A stretch of 34,322 nt of DNA from an uncultured Dehalococcoidia bacterium (GTDB lineage Bacteria; Chloroflexota; Dehalococcoidia; Lucifugimonadales; UBA3495): assembly GCA_950072105.1 (NCBI GenBank), contig CATMOE010000041.1, positions 1 through 34,322 of the forward strand, written 5' to 3'. A program made the position numbers and the translations under genes. Under the pieces are notes generated by a model. It ran no database searches. It saw nothing but the letters and a program-made list of their open reading frames with translations, and had not been told where the DNA came from. Shown here piece after piece: positions 8,154-31,464 of this stretch; within the stretch, counting starts at the first letter, position 1; each line of letters begins with the position of its first letter.

Positions 8154-8261
8154 TGGCTCTCCTGGACTGCTCGATCCCAGACAACCCCGCGACCGTTAGC
8201 CGGAAGAGGCCAGGAAGTTATTGGCAACCATTTACTTTAGCCAGGTAAACTGAGATTCAGC

Positions 8262-9218
8262 TTACTGCTTGGCGGAACTTGTCTGACCCGGAGGTTCTTG
8301 CAAGAACTTGAACACGTCGGCATCAGAGGAAAGAATGACGGTGGTTCGCTGATTCATGAACTTCTGGTACGACTCAAGGCTGCGCCGGAAGGCGAAGAAC
8401 TCAGGGTCCCGGTTCAGAGCGTCGGCTAAGATTCGGATGGCCTCGGCCTCGCCGCGGCCTCGCACTTCGCTGCCGATCCGGTCCGCCTCGGCTAGGATAA
8501 TCTCCCTCTGTTTGTTTGCCTGAGCTCGAATTTTCAGATCCTCCTCCTCTCCTTCGGAGCGGAAGCGGGTGGCGATGCGGTTACGCTCAGCCCGCATCCT
8601 GTTGTAGATGGAGTCCTGTACGCGGTCGGAGAAGTCCGCCCGTTTCATCCTTACATCGATAATCTCTACGCCGAATTTCCCTTCTTGGACGCGCTTCTCG
8701 GCCGCTTTGAAAACGTTATCCAGTAGCTCCGTCCGGGATTCGCTGGGTTCGAGTATGGGCAAGCCATCATCGTCGATAACGGGTACGTCGTTCTCGTCCA
8801 GGACGCGCTCGGCGCCGATGATTTCGGTTCTAGTGCTACGGGCAATCTCGTCGCGCAAGCTGGAGGTCACTATGTCGCCCAAGCGGGTCCGGGCCGTGTT
8901 CTCGGTTTGCAGAGTCTTGAAAAACTGCAAGGGGTCGACAATACGATAGCGGGCGTAGGAGTCGATCGTCATGTTCTGCTTCTCGATGTCAGGCATGGAC
9001 ACAGCCGGAGCGTCTATCCGTAAAACTCGCTTGTCGAATCTCAGCACGGTATCCACGAAGGGTGCCTTGAGGAACAGACCGGGGGTACTTGTGACGCTCT
9101 GGGGGTTACCGAACCGGGTTATGATAACCTGCTCGGTGACGTCCACCACGTATAAGGATTGGGAGACAACGATAAGGGCCACCAAGGCTAGTCCACCAAG
9201 AACTACCAATATTTTCAT
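8262..9218 (-). CDS. hflC: FtsH modulator HflC (SPFH domain)
   Basis: N-terminal TM, PGLFLKAPFVD, IYNRMRAER, DPEFFAFRRSLESY; directly downstream of hflK. Confidence 0.94.
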   Translation of the reverse strand: MKILVVLGGLALVALIVVSQSLYVVDVTEQVIITRFGNPQSVTSTPGLFLKAPFVDTVLRFDKRVLRIDAPAVSMPDIEKQNMTIDSYARYRIVDPLQFFKTLQTENTARTRLGDIVTSSLRDEIARSTRTEIIGAERVLDENDVPVIDDDGLPILEPSESRTELLDNVFKAAEKRVQEGKFGVEIIDVRMKRADFSDRVQDSIYNRMRAERNRIATRFRSEGEEEDLKIRAQANKQREIILAEADRIGSEVRGRGEAEAIRILADALNRDPEFFAFRRSLESYQKFMNQRTTVILSSDADVFKFLQEPPGQTSSAKQ

Positions 9219-9264
9219 TTTAGGACTCCTGCGCCATTTTCATAAGCTTTAAGAGGACTGGGCG

Positions 9265-11025
9265 TTACGGGGACTGGCTGGGACCTACCGGGGACTGGCT
9301 GGGACCTACCGGGATCGGGGTGATGCCGTCACGCCCCCCAAGAATAATCACCGACTCCGTGCCTGGTGAGACGATGATCTTGTTGATTCCAGGCAGGATA
9401 GTTTCGATGGCTTCCAAGTAAAGCCGCTGCTGAGTGACCTCGCTGGTCGCGGGGACCTTCAGGTTCTCTCTATTCAAATATTGGACCGTGAATCCGTCAC
9501 CGGCTCTGAGAGTTTCCCCTGCTTGCACCCGGAACGTAACCACATTGGTGCGGGCATCGAAACCGTTTACCGAGATGTCAACGCCATCGGCTTTTCCACC
9601 GTCAGGCCCATTAACCAACTTTATGTCGGCGGCGGAGATTCCGGTTGTGACATTATCGTCCCCGTCGGCGTTGTCGGTATCAAGGACTGGGTTGTTCAAA
9701 CGCATCTCGAAGGGTCCGGTGCCAACCAAGGAGGGCAGCGTTAGGATTTCGTTCCCTAGGTACGCTATGGAAAAGCCGGTGCCGCTGACCAGGGCGCTAT
9801 TCTGGCCGTCATATCCAACGCTGAAGGTACAAAGCACGGCGCTATCGCCATCGGCGGCATCGGCGTTGGTGAACAGGCATTCGGAGCCTTCTCCCAATTC
9901 GGCGCCAATAAGTGTCAAGGAGCTTACCAGGATGTCGATCCCATCCCCGTCAACATCCGGGCCGTCGATCATTGTCACGTCACCCAGGCCGATTCCGGTG
10001 GCAGGGTCGCCGTCACCGTCGGCGTCGTTCGTGTCCTGCAGCACGTTTCCGAGTTCGATGGAATGGTCGCGGAACTGCTCCAGAACCGAGATGAACCGAG
10101 ATGATTCACCACGGGCCCTGGCAACTCGGGCCTGAGCAAACGCTTCGGCTTCCCTCTTGATGCGCTCGGCATCACCCTGAGCCCTTGGGATGATATTGTT
10201 TTTGTAGGCCAGGGCTTCGTTGACCCGGGTTTCTTGCTCCTGGCGGGCGCGCAGCACGTCTTCGAAAGACTCGAAAACCTCTTCCGGAGCCTGGGTCTTC
10301 AGCAGTTGAAGGCTTACTATGTTGATCCCAGTTTGGTAATTGTCCAATATATCTTGAAGCCTGGTCTTGGTGTCCGATTCCACGGCGGTCCGCTGCTCGG
10401 TCAACACGTCTTCAATGCTCCGCTGTCCCACCACTAACCGCAGGGCGGCTTCAGCGGCGTCCTTGAGGGTGCGGCCCTCCGGGTTGCCCGGAGGAATCCC
10501 CCTGGCGTCCTCCCCCGGGTCGTTTACCCGGAACAAGAAGCCCACCAGGTCCTTGATGTCATACTGGACCACCATCTGAACGTCGACGATGTTCAGGTCG
10601 CCGCTAATCATCAAGCCTTCCACCGGGACTTGGACGTCGGCCACACCCTGGTCGGCCCCGCTGCGGAAGCCTAACTCCATACGGCGGGTTTCGGTCACCT
10701 TAATCTTGTCCGTTTTCCCGATAGGGCCAGGCCACCACCAATGGAGACCGGTTTGAGTGACGACCCCCGCAGTTCCTGAGCAAGGCGCGAGAGCCGCGCC
10801 ACAGATCGCGCCGAAGCGGCGCTGGGCCACTTCCTCGCCGGGTCCGATGCGGTATATTCCGGAGGCTAACCATAGGACTGCGATAAGTGCGATCGCGAGT
10901 ACGATTACGCCGCCCACGCCGCCGCCACCTAATCGGGCGGCGATGCTTCCTATGGTGCCTTTGACACCGGCCAACAGTTGGTCAAAGTCAACTTCCGGTT
11001 GACGTGGTCCGCCAGGTTGAAACAT
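9265..11025 (-). CDS. hflK: FtsH modulator HflK with a ~205-aa internal insertion
   Basis: GLHWWWPGPI, MISGDLNIVDVQ, VLRARQEQE, IIPRAQGDA, EVTQQRLYLEAIE; upstream of hflC and near ftsH. Confidence 0.92.
   Translation of the reverse strand: MFQPGGPRQPEVDFDQLLAGVKGTIGSIAARLGGGGVGGVIVLAIALIAVLWLASGIYRIGPGEEVAQRRFGAICGAALAPCSGTAGVVTQTGLHWWWPGPIGKTDKIKVTETRRMELGFRSGADQGVADVQVPVEGLMISGDLNIVDVQMVVQYDIKDLVGFLFRVNDPGEDARGIPPGNPEGRTLKDAAEAALRLVVGQRSIEDVLTEQRTAVESDTKTRLQDILDNYQTGINIVSLQLLKTQAPEEVFESFEDVLRARQEQETRVNEALAYKNNIIPRAQGDAERIKREAEAFAQARVARARGESSRFISVLEQFRDHSIELGNVLQDTNDADGDGDPATGIGLGDVTMIDGPDVDGDGIDILVSSLTLIGAELGEGSECLFTNADAADGDSAVLCTFSVGYDGQNSALVSGTGFSIAYLGNEILTLPSLVGTGPFEMRLNNPVLDTDNADGDDNVTTGISAADIKLVNGPDGGKADGVDISVNGFDARTNVVTFRVQAGETLRAGDGFTVQYLNRENLKVPATSEVTQQRLYLEAIETILPGINKIIVSPGTESVIILGGRDGITPIPVGPSQSPVGPSQSP
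9268..9313. repeat. Perfect 21-nt tandem duplication (CGGGGACTGGCTGGGACCTAC x2) at the hflK 3' end, encoding PVGPSQS x2
   Basis: Identical copies at 9268-9288 and 9289-9309, plus a partial third. Confidence 0.9.
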
Positions 11026-11241
11026 ATTGAATCGTCCTTATACTGGGCTTGAATGAGGATAAACCATGAAAGGGTTGAATTCTGCAACAAGTCAATAGGG
11101 ATTCTATCATCTTCTTGGAGCCGGGAGCCACCTCCAGGCTACTGATATTCGATGATAAATATCTTAGTTAGGGACCCTCCAGCCTACCAGGACCGCGGCC
11201 ATACCTGATTTACCCTCGAACGGTCATGCTGCCGCACACGG

Positions 11242-11431: not shown

Positions 11432-11728
11432 ATGGCGGACAATGGTATAACTGTGAAATCCGGCGACGGAATGACCCGAGTGGAAGTGACGTGCGGCCAC
11501 CAAAGCGGCCTGATATACGTGGTTCCCGCATCCCGCAGTTGGGTTTGCTCTGAAGAATTGATCCCGGCCCACGCTTTGGCCGGATTCTTTCGGGAGTTGG
11601 TGGCGTTAAAACTTGGCCCAGTGGCGGAACTGATGCAAGATTGGGGGATATATTACCGCCAACTGCCCTTGGCCCTTGAAGAGAACTCCGGCGAATCGAT
11701 CGATCCCGCGGAGGCATCAAAAAGCTGA
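11432..11728 (+). CDS. Hypothetical protein (98 aa)
   Basis: GGAGG RBS, upstream promoter-like site, globular-looking sequence. Confidence 0.7.
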   Translation: MADNGITVKSGDGMTRVEVTCGHQSGLIYVVPASRSWVCSEELIPAHALAGFFRELVALKLGPVAELMQDWGIYYRQLPLALEENSGESIDPAEASKS

Positions 11729-11784: not shown

Positions 11785-13782
11785 TCAGCTGTCAGAGTCT
11801 CCGGCCGCCGGCATTGGATCGCTGGTGCTGGACATAGCCGGCGACGGCGACGGCTGGCCGATGGGCGGTTGGGCGGGCGAGGGCGTCATGGGAGGCGTTT
11901 CCGGCGGGGCGTCCGGTGGGATCGCCGGAGTGCCGGGGTCGTCGCCGATCGCGCCATCGTCCAGCAAACGGACCATGTTGTCACCAGAGATGGTCTCGTG
12001 CTCGATCAGATATTCGGACAGCAGGACCAAACTAGGCTTATTTTCGACGAGGATTTCCTGGGCCCTTTCGTAGGCTAACTTGATCAGAATCCGAACCTCA
12101 TCATCGATTTCCTCGGCTATTTTATCCCCGTAGTCCCGCTCCTCGCTGATCTCCCGGCCCAGGAAAACCATTTCCTGCACCTTGCCGAAGGTTCGAGGTC
12201 CCAAGGATTCGCTCATGCCATATCGTTTGACCATGCTCAGAGCTACCTTGGTCGCCCGCTCGATGTCATTGCTGGCGCCGGTGGTGACTTCGCTGAAGAT
12301 CATTTCCTCGGCGACACGGCCACCCATCATCACGGAAAGCATGTCCCCAAACTGATTTTTGGTCCATAGGTACCGGTCTTCGTCGGGCAGGAGGGAGGTA
12401 TGCCCACCCATATTGCCCCGGGACACGATCGATATCTTGTGCACCCGGTCAGCGTGAGGAAGGTTGTGGGCCACCAAGGCGTGCCCAGCCTCGTGGTAGG
12501 CGGTCATCTCCTTTTCTCTGGGGCTGATGATCCGGCTTTTGCGCTCCGGCCCGCCAACGATCCGGTCCACGGCCTCTTCAAACTCCTCCATGAAGATGGA
12601 CTTCTTGTCGGCGCGTGCCGCTAGAATAGCGGCTTCGTTAACTAGGTTGGCAAGATCGGCCCCGCTGAATCCCGGCGTTTCTTTAGCCAGGTTATCCAAG
12701 GTGACCTCTGGTGCGATGGGCTTGCCGGCGGAGTGAACCTTCAGGATAGCTTCCCGGCCCTTAATGTCGGGAAGGTCCAGCGTGACTCGCCGGTCGAACC
12801 GGCCAGGGCGCAAAAGCGCCGGGTCCAGAATGTCCGGGCGGTTGGTGGCGGCCAGCACGATGACATTGTTGTTGGGCTCGAACCCGTCCATCTCCACCAG
12901 GATCTGGTTTAGGGTTTGCTCACGCTCGTCATGTCCGCCGCCCAAGCCTGCTCCCCGATGCCGCCCAACGGCGTCGATCTCATCGACAAACACGATACAA
13001 GGAGCGTTCCGTTTGGCTTGGTCGAACAGGTCCCTTACACGGGCCGCGCCTACGCCGACGAACATCTCTACAAATTCGCTGCCGCTGATGTGGAAGAAGG
13101 GGACACCCGCTTCCCCGGCAACGGCTCGGGCTAGCAGGGTCTTACCGGTGCCTGGCTGACCTACCAATAGCACTCCCTTGGGAATCCGGGCTCCAAGGGA
13201 AAGGAATCGCTCAGGGTACCTTAGGAACTCAACAACCTCTTGCAGTTCGGCCTTAGCTTCTTCCACCCCGGCAACATCGGCGAAGGTAACGCCAGGGCGG
13301 TTCGGGGCCGCCATGCGGGCCCGGCTACGCCCAAAGCTCATCGTCTGATTATTGCTTCCCTGGGCTTGGCGCATCATGAACAGGATCAATCCGCCAAAAA
13401 TGATTAAAGGCAGGAAGTTCAGGAGGAGCCCCAACAAACTGCTTAGACCGCTGGAACCTTCGAATGTGACCGAGACTCCGCTGGGAGGGCCGATCTCAAC
13501 GCCACTCTCAACTAACAGGTTGATGACGTCCGTATCACTGCCCATGCGGCTGTAAAGCCGGTCGCTCCCGACCCGGCTGCTAACGTTTGGGGTTATGGTG
13601 AGTTTTCTGCCGTCGACGGCAATCTCACGAATCTCGTCGTTCTTGGCCATGGCGACGACCGTGGTTAGGGGCACGTCGTTGCTGGCCCCAAAGCTGGGCA
13701 GGAGCGTATAGAAGATTACAATCACTCCCACAATTACCAGGAGGTAAACGACGCCATTTCGTAACCAACGGTTCTTGCCCAT
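11785..13782 (-). CDS. ftsH: ATP-dependent zinc metalloprotease FtsH
   Basis: Two TMs, GQPGTGKT Walker A, FVDEID Walker [21 protein letters not shown] second region of homology, HEAGH zinc motif; Pro-rich tail. Confidence 0.98.
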
Positions 13783-18266: not shown

Positions 18267-20252
18267 TTATCCGGATGGCGCCGCGCTGATCGTATAAGTG
18301 GCCGGTTGAAGGGTCTTTGGCGCCAGGGCCGCCACTGCCACCACCAGCCGGTTTAGATCTTGGGGAGCGTTGATCAACAACTCCCCATCGTTGGAACCGT
18401 CCAGCTTCATGACACTTACCCGGTTCTGCTCGTCGATCTCTATCACCTGAACGATGTAGTCTTGGGCCACGCGGTTGTCGATCAGAATGAACCCCTTGGC
18501 CTCCCACTCGCCGGATAGTGGACCAGGTTGGACTTCAGGAACGAAAATCCGGCGGACGCAAAGACCCGCGCCGTTCACTGCGTCGTCGGTGATGTATTGG
18601 AACCGCAACAGTATCTCCTGCCCGGCATAGGACGTCAGGTCCATGGACTCTTCTATCCAGCCACCGCTTTCTCCGGTGTAACCCATTCCAAAACTATTCC
18701 CCACCGGATTTTCCGCCGAGGTGTGTGGGGCTTCCAGAATGATCCATCTTTGACCGCCATTGATGGACACCTCCAGATAGGCGTAGTCCCACAGTTCCTC
18801 CAGGCTATACCAAAGCTCGAAGTTCAGCCTCACCTTGTCCAGTCCTCTCAGATCCAATGACCGGGTCAGGGTGGAGTTTATCGAGTCTCCCGAGTTGCTC
18901 CACCAGCATCCTTGAGCCCCGGCGTCCACCGGTAACAGTGCGGTCTCAGCGTTCCCTTGGAAACGCAAGCGCAATGGACCGGAAAAGGACGTGAATTCGA
19001 CATATTCCACCGCGTATTGAGGAATCTCAGAACTGAATTCCGAGTAAGAATCAACGATGTTTTGAACCCTGGGCACTGTCTCGAAACCGGTGTGCCCGTA
19101 TTTTCCCTCGGGTTCGTCCAGCAGATTAGCCACCACCCAGTCGCCGAATACGTCCCGGAAGGTGACACCGAAACCAGAGGCCGCCAGATAGCTATCGATG
19201 CCATCTATCCCGTCTTGTGGTTCTTCAAGCAAAGGCCGCAATCCCAAGGGCGTGGCGTATTGCTCGTAAAGGTAGTGCATGAACAGGGACGATGCCCCAT
19301 AGTGGACGCCGGCGTGGTCAGGGGTCAGGGGCCAGTTGATCAGAGACGTCGGCCCCGCCCGGAGGAACCGTCCCACCGAATCCTGACCGTAGCCAGCCAC
19401 GGTGACGGCCAGTTCCGACAACCCTTCGTTCATCCATGTTTCCTCGGAAGGATCACCGTTCCAATGAATCGCGTGCTGTAGCTCGTGGGCCAGCGTACGG
19501 TTATAGCCGGAGCTGCCCACGGAATACGCGCTAGTATTGATGTAAACGATTTCCCTTTGATTACTGAACGGGAACACGGTGTTTGGATACTCGTCGCTGG
19601 AAGTGTAATAGCCGCCGGCGGCCTTGAGTCGGGCGTTGAGGATATTTAGGTGAGGGTCATCGTCCACGCCCGGAGACCATTCGGCGCCGAACACGCGGAT
19701 GATTCTCGGGTAGATCTCCTCTTCGAAAGCGGCGGCCGACCGCTCCAGATCTTCCTGCCGGATCGATTGGCCTTCTTCTACGTACCAGTAGGCATGGCCG
19801 GTGATCAATCTCAGTTCGAACTCCGACTGGTAGACCGTCAACGCAGGTAGATCCAGCAGCCAGAATGTGTCGACGCGCCCCGTCTCGAATTCCGGTGGAC
19901 TGGGTGCTACTATCCGGGGAAACCCCGCCGATAATCCGGGCACCAACTCGGCCGCCAGTTGGTAAATGTCCCGTTCCGGGGCTGCGGTCAAGGGGATCGG
20001 GTTCCTTCTGCCGGCAGGGTTGACCTCCGTAGAACGGCCGGTAGTGGTTGGCGGAGCCGACAGGGGAACGGCTGCGGGGGCGGCTGCGGTTTCCGTGGCG
20101 AAATCTGGCGGTGTAGAGGGAATCTCGAGGACCGGCGAAGGTGGTGGCGGCGCCTGAGTCGTGATCGGGCCGGCCGTTGGAGAGTCCTTAGTCGCGCAAG
20201 CAAGTAGAGCGGCAATCAACAGGACAGTCGTGATTAACAGAGTCGGCTGCAA
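18267..20252 (-). CDS. Lipoprotein zinc metallopeptidase (immune inhibitor A/M6- or M30-like) with a C-terminal beta-sandwich
   Basis: LLAC lipobox, Pro/Thr linker, AHELQH..WMNEGLSE, WDYAYLEVS, LRFQYITD. Confidence 0.8.
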   Translation of the reverse strand: MQPTLLITTVLLIAALLACATKDSPTAGPITTQAPPPPSPVLEIPSTPPDFATETAAAPAAVPLSAPPTTTGRSTEVNPAGRRNPIPLTAAPERDIYQLAAELVPGLSAGFPRIVAPSPPEFETGRVDTFWLLDLPALTVYQSEFELRLITGHAYWYVEEGQSIRQEDLERSAAAFEEEIYPRIIRVFGAEWSPGVDDDPHLNILNARLKAAGGYYTSSDEYPNTVFPFSNQREIVYINTSAYSVGSSGYNRTLAHELQHAIHWNGDPSEETWMNEGLSELAVTVAGYGQDSVGRFLRAGPTSLINWPLTPDHAGVHYGASSLFMHYLYEQYATPLGLRPLLEEPQDGIDGIDSYLAASGFGVTFRDVFGDWVVANLLDEPEGKYGHTGFETVPRVQNIVDSYSEFSSEIPQYAVEYVEFTSFSGPLRLRFQGNAETALLPVDAGAQGCWWSNSGDSINSTLTRSLDLRGLDKVRLNFELWYSLEELWDYAYLEVSINGGQRWIILEAPHTSAENPVGNSFGMGYTGESGGWIEESMDLTSYAGQEILLRFQYITDDAVNGAGLCVRRIFVPEVQPGPLSGEWEAKGFILIDNRVAQDYIVQVIEIDEQNRVSVMKLDGSNDGELLINAPQDLNRLVVAVAALAPKTLQPATYTISAAPSG

Positions 20253-20909: not shown

Positions 20910-24988
<4,079 letters not shown>

Positions 24989-27740: not shown

Positions 27741-28271
27741 TTAATCATCCGATGAAGTTGAGACGGCCTCTTCCTGGGAGGTCCGGTCGATCCTAGCTAG
27801 AAACCAGGGTTCGATCCGGCGTTGGAACCAGGGTTCAATACGATGGCCAAAGGGTAACAGATGGGGCAGGCTCCGGTACGAATCCATGACGTGGTGATGG
27901 GGAGAGATATAACGGGAGTCGAACCCTTTGAACACCCGAAAGGTGATCCAATAAGCAAAAGGGGATAGGCGGTTCCATATGTGGTCGGTGGCTACGTGGG
28001 CCACGTGTCCCAGGATAGCGGCCAGCAGAAACGGGTGATAAAAGAACAGGCCGATCAAAGACAATACCATGGGATATTCCCAGGCGTGAAAGAGCACGTA
28101 GATCCGGTTATTCTTGCCTCTGATGTACCGCTGGTAGTAGTCGAAGAGGTGGTCCAAGTCCATCAATACGCCCACCCCCAGAGCTACTCCGGCGGCGGCG
28201 GGAGAGCCGGTTATGGCCCATGTGCCGCCGGCAACGGCGCTGGAAATAACCGTGTGACCTATCGGTCCCAT
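27741..28271 (-). CDS. Membrane-bound metal-dependent hydrolase-like protein (YdjM-like)
   Basis: GH near the N-terminus, DLDH, FHAWE and HVAHVATD motifs with TM segments. Confidence 0.65.
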   Translation of the reverse strand: MGPIGHTVISSAVAGGTWAITGSPAAAGVALGVGVLMDLDHLFDYYQRYIRGKNNRIYVLFHAWEYPMVLSLIGLFFYHPFLLAAILGHVAHVATDHIWNRLSPFAYWITFRVFKGFDSRYISPHHHVMDSYRSLPHLLPFGHRIEPWFQRRIEPWFLARIDRTSQEEAVSTSSDD

Positions 28272-30288: not shown

Positions 30289-31464
30289 ATGGAAAGACGG
30301 CGAGCCTCAAGACTCGATAAGGTAGAGCCTCCGGCCACGATCGCCGCCGGAGAGCGGGCTAGGCAATTGTCCAGGCAAGGGCGAGACATCATAGACCTGG
30401 GGCAATCCAGCCCACATCACGTCACACCGGAGCACATCATCGAGGCGGGGGTAAAGGCCCTGCGCGATGGAATGACGAATATCGAGTCTCCAAGGGGACT
30501 TCCGGAATTCCGCGAAGCGATGGCAGAAAAACTGGCCAGGCACAACGGCTTGGACATTAACCCGGGCGGCGATGTCCTGGTGACACCCGGCAGCAAACAG
30601 GGCCTCTACTATTCCGTCAATGCATTCATCGGCGAGGGGGATGAGGTCCTGTTGATCGAGCCTACTTGGGTCAGCTTTCGCCAGCAGGTCCAACTTTCCC
30701 AAGGTATACCGGTGGCGGTCCCGCTGAGCGAGGAAGAGGAATACGCCATAACCTACGAGGGCTTGCGCCGATACATCACGCCCCGGACCAAAGCGATGGT
30801 TATCAACAATCCTAACAACCCCACGGGGCGGGTCTACACTCTGACGGAACTGGAAGCCGTGGCCAGATTGGCTACGGAGAACAATCTCCTGGTGATCTGC
30901 GACGAGACCTACGAATATTTCATTTACGGCTCCAATAAGCACCATACTCTGGCCGCTCTGCCTGGTATGTGGGAGCGAACATTGACCAGTTACACCTTCA
31001 CCAAGTCTTACTCGATGGCGGGATGGCGTTTGGGGTGCATCGTGGGTCCGGAAGCGCTGCTGGAGCCTTTGGTGCAGATCCACGAGCATACGGCCAGTTT
31101 CGTCTCTCCCTTTATCCAGATGGCCGGCATAGCCGCTGTCACCGGCCCCCAGGACCATATCGAGGACTGGCGCGCCGAATGCGCCGGACTTGCCACGGCG
31201 GTGGTTGATATGCTCAACGCCGTGGATGGGGTCCATTGCCCCCTACCACAAGGGGCCACTTTCGTGTTTCCACGCTTTTCCATGGAGCGTACGTCCGTGG
31301 AGTTGGCCGGGCTGTTGGTGGAGAGCCAAGGCGTGGTAATCACCCCGGGAATCGGCTTCGGAGAGTCGGGTGAAGGCCATGTCCGCATCGCGTTGATGCG
31401 CTCCCCGGCGGAGCGGGTGCGGGAAGGCGTAGAACGCATCGCCACGGCCTTGGAGACCTTGTAA
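30289..31464 (+). CDS. PLP-dependent aminotransferase class I/II
   Basis: NNPNNPTG, DETY, TKSYSMAGWRLG (PLP lysine), GEGHVRI; GGAGG RBS before ATG 30289. Confidence 0.93.
   Translation: MERRRASRLDKVEPPATIAAGERARQLSRQGRDIIDLGQSSPHHVTPEHIIEAGVKALRDGMTNIESPRGLPEFREAMAEKLARHNGLDINPGGDVLVTPGSKQGLYYSVNAFIGEGDEVLLIEPTWVSFRQQVQLSQGIPVAVPLSEEEEYAITYEGLRRYITPRTKAMVINNPNNPTGRVYTLTELEAVARLATENNLLVICDETYEYFIYGSNKHHTLAALPGMWERTLTSYTFTKSYSMAGWRLGCIVGPEALLEPLVQIHEHTASFVSPFIQMAGIAAVTGPQDHIEDWRAECAGLATAVVDMLNAVDGVHCPLPQGATFVFPRFSMERTSVELAGLLVESQGVVITPGIGFGESGEGHVRIALMRSPAERVREGVERIATALETL

Follow-up and report, generated by a model that had tools for sequence, protein, structure and literature searches.

The window, by which we mean the whole stretch of 34,322 nucleotides analysed here, carries an ftsH-hflK-hflC locus. 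The genes are arranged in the order ftsH, a small ORF on the opposite strand, hflK, hflC, the succinyl-CoA ligase genes and gatB. The ftsH gene (11785-13782, reverse strand) lies upstream of hflK and represents the sole Peptidase_M41 match in this 92%-complete genome. The hflK gene (9265-11025, reverse strand) encodes a protein of 586 aa, which was assigned due to its Band_7 domain, its score with the hflK equivalog model TIGR01933 (200.1 bits, cut-off 159.4) and its alignment to HflK from E. coli, and which contains an insertion of 206 residues. HflC (318 aa; 8262-9218, reverse strand) scores 229.9 bits with TIGR01932 (cut-off 134.4) and does not contain the inserted domain. The HflC proteins of the family, including this one, comprise an acidic SPFH2 segment of about 25 aa that follows the EIIG motif, whether or not the genome carries the insert.

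The ORF between ftsH and hflK (98 aa; 11432-11728, forward strand) has no Pfam or NCBIfam match. It is 47-88% identical across the family and is found beside insert-bearing and insert-free hflK genes alike; on this comparison it is not tied to the insert. Elsewhere in the window three ORFs of 675, 176 and 309 aa (20910-22937, 27741-28271 and 30307-31236, all reverse strand) are likewise without Pfam or NCBIfam match, and a protein of 661 aa (18267-20252, reverse strand), which combines an InhA-like MAM domain with a weak HExxH metalloprotease match, is probably a secreted protease.

The insertion in HflK

The protein has the layout of HflK with one N-terminal transmembrane helix, an SPFH domain, a long helix, a cap helix and a C-terminal strand; all features of hflK given below are on the reverse strand. 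The single predicted transmembrane helix covers approximately residues 36-54 (10864-10920), as indicated by hydropathy and by a helix at 36-54 in the structural model, and by analogy with E. coli the protein beyond it would be extracytoplasmic. The SPFH/Band_7 domain comprises residues 59-271 (10213-10851; E 1.4e-19). It is followed by the insert (residues 319-527; 9445-10071), which separates the long wall helix, predicted at 264-318, from the cap helix, predicted at 529-546.

The spacer from F318 to V530 is 211 residues long, while the equivalent spacer comprises 5 residues in E. coli HflK and in each of the 15 loci of the family that were read and have no insert, so that 206 residues are extra, in good agreement with the approximately 205 of the original prediction. 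In the alignment with E. coli HflK, residues 133-319 correspond to 143-316 and residues 526-560 to 317-351, the latter cap segment being weakly aligned (7.3 bits). The break falls between K316 and A317 of the E. coli protein, which we take from the model to be the wall-to-cap kink; residue numbers for this kink were found in none of the papers of the literature searched. The insert is located at the predicted wall-to-cap helix break, close to where it had been placed before. The core of the cage looks intact, as judged from the alignment: FtsH is described to bind SPFH residues of E. coli HflK including R185 (PMC12048511, PMC13220708), and R185 aligns to an invariant K188 here. At the C-terminus of HflK a 21-nt tandem duplication (9268-9309; PVGPSQS twice) is length-polymorphic in other sequencing runs.

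The insert region matches 274 proteins, and among the 120 matches listed most are Band_7 proteins of 510-588 aa; the source names of the protein matches listed are Dehalococcoidia, Chloroflexi or SAR202. A contig from an independent marine study covers positions 8200-11217 without a break, a second DNA contig crosses both insert junctions, and each junction is crossed by contigs from RNA libraries as well, which with possible DNA carry-over cannot prove transcription. This check used assembled contigs only, from 4 of the 19 sequencing runs carrying the DNA. An assembly chimera, as cautioned against in the original prediction, or a frameshift is ruled out by the 274 homologues together with the independent contigs across both junctions. 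The DNA is present in 18 runs of 14 studies, all of them marine, from seawater or vents (one possible source run was left out). Base composition (GC 0.577 vs. 0.599, GC3 0.675 vs. 0.692) gives no sign of a recent foreign origin, and rough dN/dS values of 0.34 and 0.13 were obtained for two pairs.

No significant match was found for the insert in Pfam or NCBIfam; a Cadherin-like match appeared at E 0.026 in one of 43 insert members. The 43 inserts have a mean net charge of -24.5. The insert consists in sequence of two homologous units, as expected from the first inspection (BLASTP 30% identity, E 5e-11; HHalign probability 99.1%, E 6e-19).

Predicted fold of the insert and its acidic loops

AlphaFold predicts the insert alone (43 sequences) as an all-beta structure with a pLDDT of 86.4 and a pTM of 0.84, which agrees with the beta-rich character proposed earlier. 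In the full-length model the insert reaches a pLDDT of approximately 70-90, lower at 375-394, and stands between the helices 264-318 and 529-546. The SPFH part of this model is poor (pLDDT <50), so that the domains are only putatively oriented outward on the cage, and the HflC copy described below could face inward.

The two repeats stand in the sequence, yet their borders are probably not those of the predicted domains. Two strands of 13 residues in the model (insert positions 99-111 and 193-205) cross the borders of the sequence repeats, and for this reason the insert probably forms two nested sandwiches and not two domains arranged head-to-tail. Matches of single domains in structural searches cover either model residues 104-201 or 73-84 residues spread over 1-209. 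We infer that a distal domain B (residues 425-519; 9469-9753) is inserted in a proximal domain A. To the core of A (residues 321-424; 9754-10065) the return strand ENLKVP (residues 520-525; 9451-9468) is probably added, and this strand is a homologue of the one with which domain B starts. With B nested in A, both chain ends would return to the helix break. In 14 related genomes a domain of this B type, without an A domain, resides in HflC.

The fold is confidently predicted, and the structure search recommended for the insert returned no significant match, neither to S-layer proteins nor to others. Foldseek found no match for the insert model at E<=0.001, and the PDB and viral structure libraries, searched with the two-domain model, gave no significant fold match. 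The best neighbours are beta-sandwiches of similar size, namely Ig-like domains of the S-layer proteins SbsC (2RA1, residues 271-358; VIA Z 4.2, rmsd 4.0, 84 aligned residues) and Sap (domain 1; Z 3.8, rmsd 3.2), both not significant and at 10-12% identity to the insert. These scores are within the range of common arrangements, so that homology to the SbsC and Sap domains does not follow from them. A missing fold match does not prove a new fold.

Domain A contains the Cys pair noticed at the outset, C383 and C399 (9829-9879), in a hairpin which is unique to this domain. Exactly two Cys are present in 43 of 43 inserts, and the pair likely forms a disulfide. The HflC copies do not contain the Cys hairpin.

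Each domain carries an acidic Asp loop, which is a putative Ca2+ site. The loop of domain A comprises D331-G344 (9994-10035), with D331, D336, D338 and G344 invariant in 43/43 inserts, and that of domain B comprises D449-G462 (9640-9681). The pattern D-x-[DN]-x-x-D-x-D-x-[DN/E] is found in all 43 A loops, in 40 of the 43 B loops and in 9 of the 14 HflC copies; the loop is absent from 3/43 distal HflK units and 5/14 HflC copies (8/57 together), L006 and L007 being natural examples of such copies. The loops had been described as DxDGD-like. A conserved acidic loop is indeed present, but the strict Dx[DN]xDG mostly fails, being found in 7/43 A loops, in none of the 43 B loops and in an optional second loop of A in 9/43. 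The Dx[DN]xDG calcium loop as described in the available part of PMC3123361 resembles the loop here in its alternating Asp/Asn residues, in its portability and in its occurrence in an unrelated fold. In contrast to it, the consensus here is D-x-[DN]-x-x-D-x-D-x-[DN]-x-x-T-G, and a PDB sequence search with the loop profile gave a chance match only.

The 14-residue motif DxDNxDxDx[DN]xxTG recurs in dozens of proteins that are unrelated to each other, many of which are secreted or located at the surface. A pattern scan of metagenomes yielded at least 122 loci (L102-L223) with at least 121 in-frame matches. After 13 low-complexity and 4 HflK matches had been set aside, at least 104 were left in at least 36 sequence clusters. 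The position left free in the pattern is occupied by Ala in 22 of 36 clusters (the number of clusters being at least 36), compared to a background of about 9%. The largest cluster holds at least 38 matches, and two of its members were scanned and have no Pfam match. Among viral contigs (L244-L256) the pattern occurs at 13 loci, 7 of them with Ala, while a control with TG changed to GT occurs at 7, none with Ala. Pfam matches were obtained for 13 of the 36 host fragments scanned: pilin-type (2), FGE-sulfatase-like (2), archaellin, GLUG, porin, DUF11, TSP3, Lcl_C, DUF6701, DUF5643 and RecQ, the last of which is probably a chance match since RecQ is cytoplasmic. Because of the Ala enrichment, the viral control and the varied host proteins we regard the loop, on sequence grounds, as a real and portable motif, and by analogy Ca2+ binding is plausibly its likeliest role. 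The linear motif DxDN[A]DxDx[DN]xxTG also occurs at L100/L101 and is possibly an unnamed Ca2+ loop. With a net charge near -25, the Cys pair and a loop common to pilin-type, archaellin, GLUG and DUF11 proteins, the insert does have the surface-type character suggested for it.

Distribution and history of the inserted domain

A unit profile (13 rows) was searched in 202 genomes from 27 genera of one family of marine Chloroflexota, which is likely SAR202. The domain was matched in 75 of these genomes, belonging to 10 genera. In 61 of the 75 carriers it resides in HflK, with two copies where the gene is whole. The remaining 14 carry one copy inside HflC, just before GIEIVDVRIKRADF, the last SPFH2 strand. 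No carrier (0/75) has both forms. For 43 HflK-type loci and for all 14 of the HflC type this was seen by reading the two genes themselves, while the exclusion elsewhere is based on profile matches and on unsplit hflC scores; hflC is broken by a contig end in G543 and was not found in G546. An apparent split of hflC in G543 and G534 was traced to contig breaks and contains no insert. In all 14 HflC-type loci, which are kin and not independent cases, the HflK spacer comprises 8 residues and not 5. Either a small duplication or the scar of a deletion could account for the difference.

The domain is unmatched in 127 of the 202 family genomes, and hflC scores over the cut-off in 196 of the 202. All genomes of genus g21 (40/40) and of g25 (4/4) are carriers. 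When the order was sampled, the profile matched 5 of the 24 genomes belonging to the family and none of 376 others. The class sample (400 genomes) gave one strong match, in G756, and two weak matches in unrelated ORFs, and the phylum sample (400 genomes) gave two weak matches which share the loop only. The strong match in G756 lies in a second hflKC at a contig end of a genome that also has its own plain hflKC. The origin of this second hflKC is doubtful, as contamination and transfer are indistinguishable.

With the inserts removed, the trees of HflK (72 rows, quick) and HflC (44 rows) agree in showing two deep hflKC alleles, both of which occur in genus g7. The HflK insert is present on both alleles. 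AU tests, performed on quick LG+G4 trees of 44 rows in which g21 and g7 were thinned, reject monophyly of the carriers (p 0.016) and of the HflC-type (p 0.040). The identity of the inserts is 48-60% between alleles versus 56-57% between genera within an allele, whereas the core falls from 75-76% to 61-62% between alleles. As the insert identity holds while that of the core drops, a transfer of the insert between alleles fits the sequences. Ancestral presence followed by several losses is the alternative, given that the insert tree shows the same g1+g25 split as the core. In g7 (L006, L007, L043-L046, L077, L079-L081) the HflK-type insert is found on one allele and the HflC-type on the other, which suggests operon replacement within this genus.

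The unit tree, calculated from 46 units and 79 columns, places all HflC copies in a single clade (95/92), which joins B to the exclusion of A (100/100). The HflC copy is therefore of B type, and may either be derived from B or share a donor with it. The mean identity of the HflC copies among themselves is 43.8%, compared to 56-64% for B.

Searches for a donor surface protein were without success in all sets covered. In its own genome (tblastn, blastn, HMM --max) the insert matches only this gene. Among proteins of 1027-2930 aa none of 6399 candidates matched at E<=10, which is weak evidence. A profile search of 1.84 billion representatives returned 21 matches, of which 11 are confirmed or apparent HflK/HflC proteins (4 whose sequences were read, one already known homologue and 6 fragments), and the other 10 are repeat proteins whose single repeats score <=15.6 bits. 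The ESM Atlas gave no usable match, and of 601 matches from a pattern scan of GTDB, a set that possibly does not include near relatives, none was confirmed. An origin from archaellins was rejected, since HHalign gave a probability below 2% against 7 archaellins of the genome (with a shallow template), in contrast to 99.1% for unit against unit. The genome (G000) has 14 archaellin-family matches, on C3, C4, C9, C10, C26, C31, C33, C63, C67, C69 and C97. Several of them have a Cys-flanked acidic loop, and at a genome contamination of 6% some are maybe foreign. On C3 (G000:C3:41709-44243) ORFs resembling a phage prohead protease and a major capsid protein were seen by eye near two archaellin genes.

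Possible function of the inserted domains

As in the FtsH-HflK-HflC cage of E. coli (7WI3, 7VHP, 9CZ1/9CZ2), HflK and HflC pass the equivalog cut-offs, the E. coli chains align on both sides of the insert and the genes adjoin ftsH. The difference lies in the 206 extra residues at K316/A317, or approximately 100 in SPFH2 of HflC, and in the monoderm host; for the E. coli cage the accessible parts of the reports describe no folded accessory domain. Among the SPFH proteins covered by the available part of PMC2636767 there are short insertions, which track lateral transfer, and giant coiled-coil forms. The insertion given there is 22 aa long and unconserved, whereas here a conserved folded domain occurs in either subunit. 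A folded insert in HflK or HflC was not found described in the literature searched (mostly open-access, main texts), and the accessible part of 10.1101/2023.06.07.544024 held nothing further on it, in keeping with the original prediction, in which the architecture was not recognised. We regard it as a real variant of HflKC that is restricted to one lineage and whose swap between subunits is unexplained.

The reading we prefer, with a probability of about 0.4, is that the domains are outward-facing, calcium-stabilised binding modules by which the cage is attached to some part of the cell envelope. The acidic all-beta domains would project from the outside of the FtsH-regulating cage, with domain A as predicted disulfide-braced stalk and domain B as head. 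The E. coli cage consists of 12 HflK and 12 HflC (PMC11260169, PMC10153343), and with the same 12+12 stoichiometry 24 domains would be placed at the rim in the HflK type or 12 at the shoulder in the HflC type. Ca2+ binding by the DxDNxDxDx[DN]xxTG loop would serve as a rigidifying element and not as a switch. The partner may most likely be an S-layer-like coat or its glycans. Cultured SAR202 are described as monoderm, with an S-layer-like outer layer and, in the accessible part of that report, without peptidoglycan genes (PMC10444878); Tepidiforma has an S-layer and a periplasm of 40 nm (PMC10284905). No match to mraY was found in the present 92%-complete genome. In such a cell without outer membrane, and apparently without peptidoglycan, a rim domain that is acidic and braced by a disulfide would be turned towards the S-layer-like layer.

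The presence in all genomes of g21 and g25 together with the dN/dS values points to selection and speaks for docking, as do the S-layer Ig-like domains, which are the best, though weak, fold neighbours of the model. Against it stand the two sites, which are probably at very different heights and so hard to reconcile with one fixed partner, the many unmatched family genomes (127/202) and the copies in which the loop is missing. As the domain occurs at either site and copy number and is unmatched in those 127 genomes, its function must be optional and position-tolerant. The original prediction had considered a tether to the envelope or S-layer. An S-layer tether that depends on one height is weakened by the relocation to HflC SPFH2 in 14 genomes, which was beyond what could be seen in one sequence, and the S-layer fold match (Z 4.2) is not significant. 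A more far-reaching scenario, which we consider tentative and on the whole doubtful, takes the cage as a display platform: an undescribed beta-sandwich docking domain would have entered HflK in two copies, spread from one hflKC allele to the other and later passed to HflC while HflK lost it, thereby coupling membrane-protein quality control to an S-layer-like envelope, and the loop would be a widespread unnamed Ca2+-binding surface motif.

Other roles have to be weighed against docking. The domains may bind nothing specific and, stabilised by Ca2+ and the disulfide, passively shield, stiffen or space the exposed cage from the outer coat. Their strong acidity, the toleration of either HflK or HflC as position, the optional Asp loops and the quick divergence of the HflC copies (43.8% vs. 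56-64% for B) would suit such an armour. It is nevertheless somewhat unlikely, since D59, Q77 and E80 (alignment A2), outside the loop, are kept in >=90% of 13 B and HflC copies, which is more than a bulk shield needs, and most of the family is without a domain match. A further possibility is that they capture misfolded subunits of the cell surface (pilins, archaellins, S-layer protein), or else a regulator, and hand these over to FtsH via the cage's open side; in the HflC form they might instead be located within the cage beside FtsH. An open nautilus state was proposed to admit substrates (PMC12048511), the genome has its 14 archaellin-family matches, and the HflC site belongs to the SPFH region, at the level of FtsH binding. 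The HflK site, however, is part of the C-terminal approximately 110 residues, a rigid hat at the greatest distance from the membrane (PMC12048511, PMC13220708) and away from FtsH, and among 16 sequences compared by eye no change in the extracytoplasmic domain of FtsH tracks the insert state. We thus consider a role as substrate adaptor unlikely.

It would also be conceivable that a surface domain is merely tolerated at two permissive loops and kept folded because misfolding would poison the cage. The patchy distribution and the unmodelled segment 161-190 of E. coli HflC in the same region (PMC12048511) are consistent with such a passenger, and purifying selection is expected for any folded insert. 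But the domain is fixed across whole genera, is found on both deep hflKC alleles, was relocated with strict mutual exclusion and costs about 200 residues per subunit, all of which makes this explanation improbable. Least probable of all is a sensor of calcium or redox state by which the cage would be opened or closed; the original prediction, too, had raised a sensor role. The conserved Asp loop and the Cys pair beside the helix break would fit, yet the idea is weakened because the loop is missing from some B and HflC copies, and the HflC copies are without the Cys hairpin. Moreover, Ca2+ in seawater is high and nearly constant. Cage opening is reported to matter for function in E. coli, but the hat is described as rigid (PMC13220708).

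Studies of SPFH cages treat them as shells, closed or open, that surround membrane proteases. If the domain is kept under selection in either subunit but never in both, the exterior of the cage would have a function, which would offer a way to approach the placement of membrane quality control in a cell without outer membrane and apparently without peptidoglycan. The two natural sites where a putative 24-mer cage tolerates inserts of 100-200 residues would be useful for engineering and for tomography tags, and the portable Asp loop is a candidate calcium motif which is small and open to direct testing. Another decoration of the cage is seen in G756, which belongs to another order and whose HflC (L094:1030-2355) has an acidic C-terminal extension of approximately 140 aa that is unrelated to the insert domain.
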